From a virus (taxonomy: Duplodnaviria; Heunggongvirae; Uroviricota; Caudoviricetes): a stretch of DNA of 38,798 nucleotides. Under the pieces are notes generated by a model, which was given only the letters and a program-made list of their open reading frames with translations, was not told the origin of the DNA and searched no databases. The DNA lies in the IMG/VR virus record IMGVR_UViG_2703718804_000009, one strand, 5' to 3'. Within the stretch, counting starts at the first letter, position 1. Each line of letters starts with the position of its first letter. The position numbers and the translations under genes are program-made. Below are positions 14,107 to 14,454 of this stretch, in pieces.

Positions 14107-14135
14107 CTTGCAACATTGATTTCGTAACGTTATTA
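14107..14135 (+). promoter_or_regulatory. candidate sigma70 promoter for the tRNA cluster (TTGCAA-17-TATTAT)
   Basis: Near-consensus hexamers with 17-bp spacing; predicted start site about 1-2 nt before tRNA 1. Confidence 0.5.
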
Positions 14136-14143
14136 TCCTGCGC

Positions 14144-14219
14144 CGGCCCTTTAGCTCAGTGGTGAGAGCGAGCGACTCATAATCGCCAGGTCGCTGGTTC
14201 AAATCCAGCAAGGGCCACC
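14144..14219 (+). tRNA. tRNA with CAT anticodon, most similar to tRNA-Ile2 (lysidine, AUA-decoding; ileX/ileZ-like); tRNA-Met not excluded
   Basis: Hand-folded cloverleaf: 7-bp acceptor stem, GCTC/GAGC D-stem, CTCATAA anticodon loop, perfect T-arm (GCTGG TTCAAAT CCAGC), CCA end. Confidence 0.7.
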
Positions 14220-14220
14220 A

Positions 14221-14297
14221 ACCGCCACTAGCTCATCAGGAAAGAGCGTCAACCCTTTAAGTTGAGTGTGCGAGGTTCGAGTCCCCGGTGGCGGTCC
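14221..14297 (+). tRNA. tRNA-like gene, atypical; predicted anticodon UUU (Lys) with C at position 33 and one T-stem mismatch; possible pseudo-tRNA
   Basis: Hand-folded: 7-bp acceptor stem (CCGCCAC/GTGGCGG), D-stem GCTC/GAGC, anticodon stem TCAAC/GTTGA with loop CCTTTAA, TTCGAGT T-loop, CCA end. Confidence 0.4.
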
Positions 14298-14299
14298 AG

Positions 14300-14375
14300 T
14301 GCCGACTTAGCTCAGTAGGTAGAGCAACTGACTTGTAATCAGTAGGTCACCAGTTTGATTCCGGTAGTCGGCACC
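14300..14375 (+). tRNA. tRNA-Thr (anticodon UGU)
   Basis: Hand-folded: acceptor GCCGACT/AGTCGGC, D-stem GCTC/GAGC, anticodon loop CTTGTAA, CCA end; the T-arm is slightly atypical. Confidence 0.6.
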
Positions 14376-14378
14376 ATA

Positions 14379-14454
14379 TGCGGGCATCGTATAATAGCTA
14401 TTACCTCAGCCTTCCAAGCTGATGATGCGGGTTCGATTCCCGCTGCCCGCTCCA
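14379..14454 (+). tRNA. tRNA-Gly (anticodon UCC), glyT-like
   Basis: GCGGGCATCGTATAATAGCTATTACCTCAGCCTTCCAAGCTGATGATGCGGGTTCGATTCCCGCTGCCCGCTCCA; differs from E. coli glyT as I recall it at one D-loop position (A instead of G). Confidence 0.75.

Follow-up and report, generated by a model that had tools for sequence, protein, structure and literature searches.

A cluster of four tRNA genes lies in the late region of a lambdoid Escherichia coli prophage, IMG/VR record IMGVR_UViG_2703718804_000009, and is described here together with its flanking elements and its relatives. The whole stretch of DNA analysed, 38,798 nucleotides (nt) long, is referred to as the window. ARAGORN gave four tRNA calls in 14145-14454, with the anticodon order CAU, UUU, UGU and UCC, and in the same order the genes scored 72.5, 44.4, 71.2 and 63.6 bits with Rfam RF00005 (E-values 4e-14 to 2e-6), all above the gathering threshold of 29 bits. 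In a RefSeq genome with a 100% identical cluster, the Prokaryotic Genome Annotation Pipeline (PGAP) labels the genes tRNA-Ile, -Lys, -Thr and -Gly at matching coordinates. The gaps between them are 1, 2 and 3 nt, and CCA is encoded in all four. ARAGORN, Rfam and RefSeq thus concur with the four tightly packed tRNAs, the boundaries and the anticodons given in a preliminary description of the sequence. As far as can be told from sequence, the second gene (tRNA2) is an anticodon-switched Arg scaffold of the argN family rather than an odd Lys tRNA. The cluster and its immediate surroundings comprise the following features:

14108..14136, plus strand: sigma-70-type promoter of the tRNA operon, TTGCAA-N17-TATTAT, agreeing with the consensus at 9 of 12 positions
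14145..14220, plus strand: tRNA1, tRNA-Ile2 (CAU), ileZ (ARAGORN, Rfam, RefSeq)
14222..14298, plus strand: tRNA2 (UUU), argN family (ARAGORN; Rfam, 44.4 bits)
14301..14376, plus strand: tRNA3, tRNA-Thr(UGU), thrU with C56U (comparison with K-12 thrU)
14380..14454, plus strand: tRNA4, tRNA-Gly(UCC), glyT with G18A (comparison with K-12 glyT)
14455..14640, plus strand: structured spacer with three long hairpins (fold: minimum free energy (MFE) -83.6 kcal/mol, z = -6.2)
14659..14685, plus strand: intrinsic terminator GCCCGC-TTTT-GCGGG plus U run, 5' of the holin gene (terminator scan, fold)

The -10 hexamer of the promoter ends 8 nt 5' of tRNA1. A promoter belonging to the cluster had been claimed and is present, although its earlier rating as near-consensus was too strong. 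The same promoter, unchanged, precedes ileZ in the Shiga toxin (Stx) 2a phage F349 and in PPompW, and in divergent cassettes with other upstream sequence the hexamers TTGCAx and TAtnAT recur at an unchanged distance from ileZ. Since the hexamers are kept while the upstream sequence differs, these comparisons support a working tRNA promoter. Downstream, the spacer is 98-99.7% conserved in most cassette carriers, and the hairpin region 14455-14685 matched no Rfam family. The terminator likely marks the end of the self-promoted unit. With a promoter and a terminator of their own on either side, the tRNA genes form a small, autonomous operon nested inside the late operon of the lambdoid prophage. 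The hairpins and terminator (14455-14685) may shield the lysis genes against the activity of the constitutive tRNA promoter.

The peculiarities of tRNA2 are concentrated in a few positions. Its anticodon loop reads C32-C33-U34-U35-U36-A37-A38 (14254-14260, C33 at 14255), the T stem holds an A51.C63 mismatch (14273/14285), and A20, C16 and discriminator U73 are further features; the loop CCTTTAA, the UUU anticodon with C33 and the single T-stem mismatch had all been read correctly before. U33 is near-universal 5' of the anticodon in tRNAs and is found in tRNA1, tRNA3 and tRNA4; C33 is found in tRNA2 only, and in 81 of 81 UUU copies of tRNA2 among the IMG/VR matches listed. The elbow nucleotides G18, G19, U54, U55 and C56 are intact in both tRNA1 and tRNA2. 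Alignment with host lysT revealed only generic tRNA positions in common. The body is of argN type: 65-70 of 77 positions are identical to the argN scaffold, with A20 retained and UUU as the anticodon, and even the A51.C63 mismatch occurs in the annotated argN of Stx2a phage F349. The argN family is a genuine tRNA family whose cloverleaf is backed by covariation, with 98.2% of cells paired in the alignment and five compensated pairs (none in slid controls). The cloverleaf of tRNA2 is at most 2.7 kcal/mol from the MFE, a gap like that of lysT; folding each of the four tRNAs by single-sequence MFE yielded no cloverleaf even for ileZ and was uninformative.

Sister cassettes indicate where the UUU anticodon probably came from. 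They carry an Arg-UCU tRNA in the tRNA2 position, with the anticodon stem UCAAC/GUUGA in common, a fully paired T stem and the loop CUUCUAA or UUUCUAA (both with U33), and they occur with or without Thr and Gly genes downstream. Because Arg-UCU occupies the same position there, tRNA2 appears to have arisen from Arg-UCU through U33C and C35U, together with U63C, the change behind the A.C mismatch. The ileZ and Arg-tRNA core would have gained host thrU and glyT first, and afterwards the Arg-UCU loop CUUCUAA would have become the UUU loop CCUUUAA. A U33-UUU intermediate was not found among the IMG/VR matches listed: a long-pattern scan for this form listed 16 loci, all of Arg-UCU type, and a short-pattern scan was discarded, its 120 listed AT-rich matches being unrelated and none of them a tRNA. 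Clustering of the anticodon-loop substitutions was likewise rejected as a sign of selection; it was weak, with p=0.02 against one relative and p=0.09-0.19 against others. Elsewhere, one listed IMG/VR locus carries a gene that ARAGORN calls tRNA-Thr, with the anticodon CGU (A35G) on a body of ileZ type; it departs from ileZ at four further positions, located in the T loop, the T stem and the acceptor pair 6-67. Point variants of the anticodon do arise in these cassettes.

tRNA1 is 100% identical to Stx-phage ileZ, in line with its earlier assignment to the Ile2 type, and agrees with K-12 ileX at 70 of 76 positions. It combines a CAU anticodon on an ileX-like body with the acceptor stem GGCCCUU/AAGGGCC; the pairs C4-G69 and C5-G68, which are TilS determinants, are both present. 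From these features it is predicted to be an Ile2-type tRNA decoding AUA after lysidine modification.

Codon usage in our own set of window open reading frames (ORFs) was compared with 42 K-12 genes (14,790 codons). ATA (2.9-fold), ACA (2.5-fold) and GGA (2.5-fold) are over-used, as are AGA (4.8-fold) and AGG (9.8-fold). AAA is not (0.98-fold): its frequency per thousand codons is 33.1 in the window and 33.9 in the host sample, and it accounts for 67% and 74% of their Lys codons, respectively. The suggestion that the cluster complements rare codons thus stands for ATA, ACA and GGA and leaves the UUU tRNA unexplained: rare-codon supply covers three of the tRNAs and not this one, because its codon is not enriched. 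The Ile2, Thr and Gly tRNAs are probably codon-supply copies. It is improbable that the whole set, UUU tRNA included, is a plain complement of codons over-used in late genes. The same 2.5-2.9-fold enrichments favour such a role, but K-12 already has no fewer than six genes for tRNA-Lys(UUU), of which five share one locus and lysV lies elsewhere, AAA is used less among Lys codons than in the host, and the excess of ATA over the host sample (2.4 per thousand) is smaller in late genes (5.2) than in early ones (10.8). The argument has also been published for the Thr(UGU) tRNA of phage SfI, where codon bias accounted for ACA and not for the partner tRNA (PMC3636060). The ancestral set of Ile2, Arg-UCU, Thr-UGU and Gly-UCC fits together as a supplement for minor codons that end in A and are over-used, and the switch from UCU to UUU appears to have traded a decoder that the prophage still seems to need for one that it does not.

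A different use for a UUU tRNA is suggested by the tRNA-cutting nucleases of host defence systems. AriB of PARIS cuts tRNA-Lys(UUU) at U36AAUC|A41; cutting is lost with U39A and weakened by A41C and by U16C (PMC12409363). Its second prime target is Thr(UGU), with Asn(GUU) as a secondary target, and a variant Lys tRNA of phage T5 rescues infection (PMC12409363, PMC11464382). PARIS restricts lambda (PMC9122126), as does P2 OLD, the classical lambda excluder, which requires a paired CNG at 28-30/40-42 plus A37 and has thrU as its prime target (PMC12445682); tRNA sequencing after OLD activation found Thr(UGU) and Gly(UCC) to be depleted most strongly (bioRxiv 10.64898/2026.07.10.737580). PrrC cuts tRNA-Lys 5' of the wobble base, i.e. 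after nucleotide 33 (PMC3025547).

Measured against these determinants, tRNA2 differs at several points. In place of the AriB site it has U36-A-A-G39-U40-U41 (UAAGUU), its D loop has C16 instead of U16, its stem is CAA/UUG and lacks the paired CNG motif of P2 OLD, and a C rather than a U stands 5' of the PrrC cut position. Given UAAGUU, C16 and the CAA/UUG stem, tRNA2 is predicted to escape both AriB and OLD. tRNA3 and tRNA4 keep the host anticodon arms (Thr CUG/CAG with UAAUC|A; Gly CAG/CUG) and so should be cut. That tRNA2 is a nuclease-insensitive spare decoder for Lys codons is accordingly a plausible, if tentative, reading of its sequence, held at somewhat below even confidence. U34-U35-U36, the main identity set of lysyl-tRNA synthetase (LysRS), is present in it. 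The anticodons of the cassette are also those of nuclease targets, UUU being that of the prime PARIS target, UGU that of the prime OLD and second PARIS target, and UCC that of an OLD-depleted tRNA; the post-hoc chance of this match is about 0.004, and it is confounded, because the same tRNAs are minor decoders of phage-favoured codons. In an unbiased screen, cells were rescued by the majority of the phage tRNAs that had the right anticodon (PMC12445682).

A second route to a UUU tRNA was also seen: a thrU body with G35U (and A26G) adjoins an intact Arg-UCU in the IMG/VR loci L124 and L249, and occurs in 6 of 5426 complete E. coli genomes, e.g. NZ_CP024232.1, with the PGAP label tRNA-Lys. It retains the host AriB and OLD motifs.

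Several observations weigh against a spare Lys decoder. C33 in place of the near-universal U33 predicts poor function, A51.C63 weakens the T stem, and U73 is not the Lys-type discriminator, which is A73. The resistance features pre-exist in the Arg scaffold and represent no new adaptation, and the host arms of the Thr and Gly tRNAs speak against a coordinated anti-OLD/PARIS set. Over-expressed host thrU was unprotective in two studies (PMC12445682; bioRxiv 10.64898/2026.07.10.737580).

Much of the same evidence bears on the rival that tRNA2 is a relic, an Arg-UCU tRNA that has lost its function and persists, neutral or slightly harmful, beside an ileZ under selection and Thr and Gly genes of host origin. 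This develops the earlier suggestion of a pseudo-tRNA, which is retained as a live rival and which we regard as a substantial minority possibility. C33, A51.C63 and U73 occur together in one molecule, and the covariance score has fallen to 44 bits from 53-58 in the UCU relatives; Stx argN, which carries the same A.C mismatch, scores as low (43 bits), and the main tRNA2 allele keeps every other conserved tRNA position and all stems. AGA and AGG are still 5-10-fold over the host, so that dropping Arg-UCU looks like a loss of function, but UUU, the anticodon gained, coincides exactly with that of PARIS's prime target.

Polymorphism was examined in 39 unique haplotypes with shared flanks, with Fisher tests against the adjacent spacer (32 segregating sites in 292). 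ileZ, with 2 sites in 76 (p=0.025), is the only one of the four tRNAs that is clearly constrained. tRNA2 (9/77, p=0.84) is as polymorphic as the spacer, which counts for the relic and against the decoder; the Thr (7/76, p=0.835) and Gly (5/75, p=0.389) genes, whose sequences are fully functional, are equally relaxed, so that the measure does not discriminate. Damaged derivatives of tRNA2 also persist in many genomes. One, with a 1-nt deletion in the D stem, occurs in lineages of enterohaemorrhagic E. coli (EHEC) and scores under the Rfam threshold; a second lineage carries C4U/U8C/C11U, and PGAP annotates neither as a tRNA. The D-stem-deletion form persists beside argO in PPompW phages (L003, 1624-1699) and in many EHEC O111/O145 genomes.

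Allele frequencies point the other way. The UUU allele was found in 798 of 5426 complete genomes and the intact UCU allele in about 30, a ratio of about 25:1, although genome counts are inflated through clonal host lineages, which tempers their value for a functional tRNA. The UUU allele has spread into several mosaic backgrounds that differ in Q and in the lysis module, which is not readily expected of a relic. If tRNA2 is a relic, the cassette would be a rare-codon supplement only, the 'tRNA-Lys' annotated by PGAP in hundreds of genomes would be an Arg scaffold that was re-coded and whose function is doubtful, and the tRNA gene counts of the carrier strains would be too high.

tRNA3 and tRNA4 are near-exact host genes. 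tRNA3 matches K-12 thrU at 75 of 76 positions, the sole difference being C56U in the T loop (14356, TTCGA to TTTGA), a change absent from the preliminary description. tRNA4 matches K-12 glyT at 74 of 75, differing by G18A (14396); the glyT reference behind the earlier claim was correct. The junction CCA-T|AT-GCGGGC fits a single deletion removing tyrU from a captured thrU-tyrU-glyT segment, and both genes would thus have been taken from the host thrU-tyrU-glyT operon with tyrU deleted. Among the IMG/VR matches listed, 46 of 68 prophage Thr copies are exact thrU and 3 have U56, while 49 of 67 Gly copies are exact glyT and 3 have A18. U56 and A18 always occur together, in 5 of the 5426 genomes, three of which are one farm strain. 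G18A and C56U are therefore rare private alleles of a lineage and not features of the cassette, and the D-loop substitution does not qualify as a designed feature.

Drift in gene copies that are redundant is the most likely source of these substitutions, since two changes in 151 nt fit the neutral expectation at the 0.5-1% local divergence of the lineage. Both are transitions, too. An adaptive role, in which a looser elbow reduces recognition by Toprim tRNases (P2 OLD and PARIS AriB), is decidedly improbable. The changes do hit elbow tertiary pairs (G18-Psi55 and G19-C56), with a chance of about 0.003, but this category was defined post hoc, with the data already seen. They always co-occur, and they affect the tRNAs most depleted on OLD activation (bioRxiv 10.64898/2026.07.10.737580); AriB needs a D-loop contact, U16C impairing cleavage (PMC12409363). 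Their rarity, with one strain making up three of the five carrier genomes, argues against adaptation, and no listed variant takes the known route to OLD resistance, namely changes in the anticodon-stem CNG. That both changes fall on elbow pairs of the two most OLD-depleted tRNAs remains a coincidence without explanation. FaRel2 (which attacks tRNA-Gly as well as tRNA-Thr) and HepS (Thr tRNAs) were considered as further links to the cassette and set aside, because host-identical Thr and Gly tRNAs offer no evasion of a sequence-specific attack and FaRel2 is non-enterobacterial.

Roles of tRNA2 outside normal decoding, as a decoy or inhibitor of a nuclease, an ochre-suppressor-like species or a modulator of -1 frameshifting, are highly improbable. 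Competition or inhibition by over-expressed viral tRNAs has been raised as a possibility (PMC12409363), but phage Thr tRNAs did not shield host tRNA from OLD. The suppressor-like reading mentioned earlier found no support and was rejected: in this gene a regular stem of 5 bp carries a loop of 7 nt, and an anticodon UUA would require a shifted stem register that cannot pair. For frameshifting, the prophage G/GT slip site, GTT AAA AAA AAG TAG, has both slip codons read by tRNA-Lys(UUU). The site (A AAA AAG) lies at the end of the tail assembly chaperone gene (25019-25036), with the T-part ORF in the -1 frame; to link it with the UUU tRNA of the cassette would be pure speculation.

The cluster is widespread in E. 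coli. At 80% or more of its length it was found in 601 of the 5426 complete genomes, and PhiR47_1, vB_EcoM-606R7 and vB_EcoS-689R5 are among the induced or isolated phages that carry it; among GTDB species representatives it was found in E. coli and Shigella flexneri only. When IMG/VR was scanned with the promoter sequence, 124 loci were listed, among which three gene orders stand out:

Ile2-UUU-Thr-Gly: 66 of the 124 listed loci
ileZ-argN(UCG)-argO(UCU), the classical Stx-phage type: 33 of the 124
Ile2-UUU-argO: 13 of the 124

Cassette and promoter are conserved, and the Q and lysis modules around them are mosaic. The cassette is a member of a modular lambdoid ileZ-type family, the best-known form of which is ileZ-argN-argO of Stx phages; the window departs from the family in two traits, its second gene not being an Arg tRNA and argO being missing. 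We regard the identity and ancestry of the cassette, as described, as almost certain.

Three elements lie upstream of the tRNA operon:

13240-13935: Q antiterminator gene (annotation in the RefSeq genome with the identical cluster)
13919..13947, plus strand: pR'-like late promoter TTGCAA-17-TATATT, directly 3' of Q (promoter scan)
13999..14029, plus strand: tR'-like hairpin and U run, AAACCCGCCCACAAGCGGGTTTTTTT (sequence, terminator scan, fold)

Action of Q at pR' and tR' is the lambdoid paradigm, from which the function of the element at 13919-13947 is read. The stretch from pR' to tR' (13919-14029) would yield a short RNA of about 70 nt, and sub-threshold Rfam matches of 13951-14024 to the Gifsy-1 small RNAs isrK and isrJ (E-values 0.015-0.04) hint at such an RNA. 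On the other side, the holin gene starts at 14747 according to the annotation of the RefSeq genome with the identical cluster, and is followed by lysozyme, HNH, P27-type terminase and HK97-type head genes. A YdfR-family gene 3' of the holin gene (14967-15318) is annotated as frameshifted in the near-identical RefSeq prophage, which suggests some decay of the lysis region.

The rest of the window is that of a lambdoid E. coli prophage holding DicF and sok/hokD. The DicF small RNA lies at 3015-3066 (minus strand) and the sok antitoxin RNA of the hokD locus at 10463-10637 (plus strand); dicB and ydfABC are near these loci, and the early region is Qin/Rac-like. From 8796 on, the window is 99.6% collinear with a prophage in NZ_CP101920.1. 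The early region (1-8795) differs from it through module replacements, an instance of lambdoid mosaicism.

Taken together, a nested operon, codon supply and a UUU tRNA serving as spare Lys decoder form what we consider the best explanation as a whole, one that approaches an even chance without reaching it. In the lysogen, the operon would be transcribed from its own sigma-70 promoter, and during lytic growth, by the lambdoid paradigm, Q-modified polymerase passing tR' would transcribe it as well. RNase P and 3' trimming would release the individual tRNAs. Ile2, Thr and Gly would boost the minor decoders of AUA, ACA and GGA, and LysRS would charge tRNA2 via U34-U35-U36, making it a spare decoder of AAA and AAG on an Arg-type scaffold that would lack the determinants through which host tRNases destroy tRNA-Lys(UUU).

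A further step would be that re-coding the anticodon of a resident Arg tRNA gave temperate lambdoid phages of E. coli and Shigella a nuclease-proof Lys tRNA, and that the cassette is a counter-defence element. This bolder proposal is on balance unlikely. It would make tRNA2 a natural C33 elongator charged by LysRS through the anticodon alone, not a diverged Lys tRNA, and, missing the determinants of AriB, OLD and possibly PrrC, this tRNA would sustain AAA/AAG decoding after the loss of host tRNA-Lys. If true, a cassette in about 15% of complete E. coli genomes would be a prophage counter-defence module, and the capture of thrU and glyT, the two most OLD-depleted tRNAs, would have been the first step of the same process.

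The relation of phage tRNAs to tRNA-cutting immunity (PARIS, retron-Eco7 PtuAB, P2 OLD, HepS) has been an active topic since 2023, and evidence for counter-defence tRNAs has come nearly entirely from large virulent phages. The present cassette is carried by phages of the kind that P2 OLD classically excludes, in roughly one seventh of sequenced E. coli. If the proposal holds, temperate phages too would use tRNAs against such defences, a rescue tRNA could be created by switching the identity of another tRNA, and a C33 elongator tRNA could work in bacteria. In the literature searched, with subscription journals mostly outside it, no prior description of an Ile2-UUU-Thr-Gly cassette was found, nor one of a UCU-to-UUU switch or of a C33 phage tRNA.

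Among known systems, the ileZ-argN-argO cluster of Stx phages (Stx2a_F349, 933W type) has the promoter, the leader and a 100% identical ileZ in common with the window. Its second tRNA shares the scaffold of tRNA2, including A51.C63 in the F349 type, and it occupies the same slot 3' of Q and 5' of late genes (the order in F349 is Q, tRNAs, stxA). Stx-phage argN has UCG with U33, whereas tRNA2 has UUU with C33 and an anticodon stem that differs by compensated changes; argO stands in third place there, where the window has host-derived thrU and glyT. The sister Ile2-Arg(UCU)-Thr-Gly cassettes (IMG/VR loci L254, L255, L256, L259 and L261; about 30 E. coli genomes) agree with the window in their four-gene architecture, in the anticodon stem of the second tRNA and in having Thr and Gly genes of the same host origin. 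They differ in their U33 loops, fully paired T stem, scores of 53-58 bits and PGAP label tRNA-Arg, and are about 25-fold rarer.

The Asn(GUU)/Thr(UGU) pair of SfI, Sf6, ST64T and P21 (PMC3636060) shares the lambdoid slot 3' of Q and a Thr(UGU) tRNA with the window, but the tRNA set and the sequences differ. The host thrU-tyrU-glyT-thrT operon, which tRNA3 and tRNA4 match so closely, differs from the window in possessing tyrU and thrT; the window has a 3-nt spacer and flanks of phage origin.

The Thr(UGU) tRNAs of phages T4, Bas32 and HK446, which rescue from P2 OLD (PMC12445682, bioRxiv 10.64898/2026.07.10.737580), have the anticodon of tRNA3, and the phages restricted by OLD in those studies, lambda and HK97, are lambdoid or lambda-like. 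In these rescue tRNAs the CNG motif is altered or the anticodon stem is shorter, whereas the window Thr tRNA keeps the host arm. The tRNA-Lys(UUU) of T5 (PMC11464382, PMC12409363) shares the UUU anticodon, an altered 36-41 segment and C16 with tRNA2. T5 is a virulent phage with 24 tRNAs, and tRNA2 differs from its tRNA-Lys in the Arg-family body, C33 and U73. Resistance and rescue have been shown by experiment for T5 and are predicted for tRNA2, which would resemble this type of phage rescue tRNA in its working.

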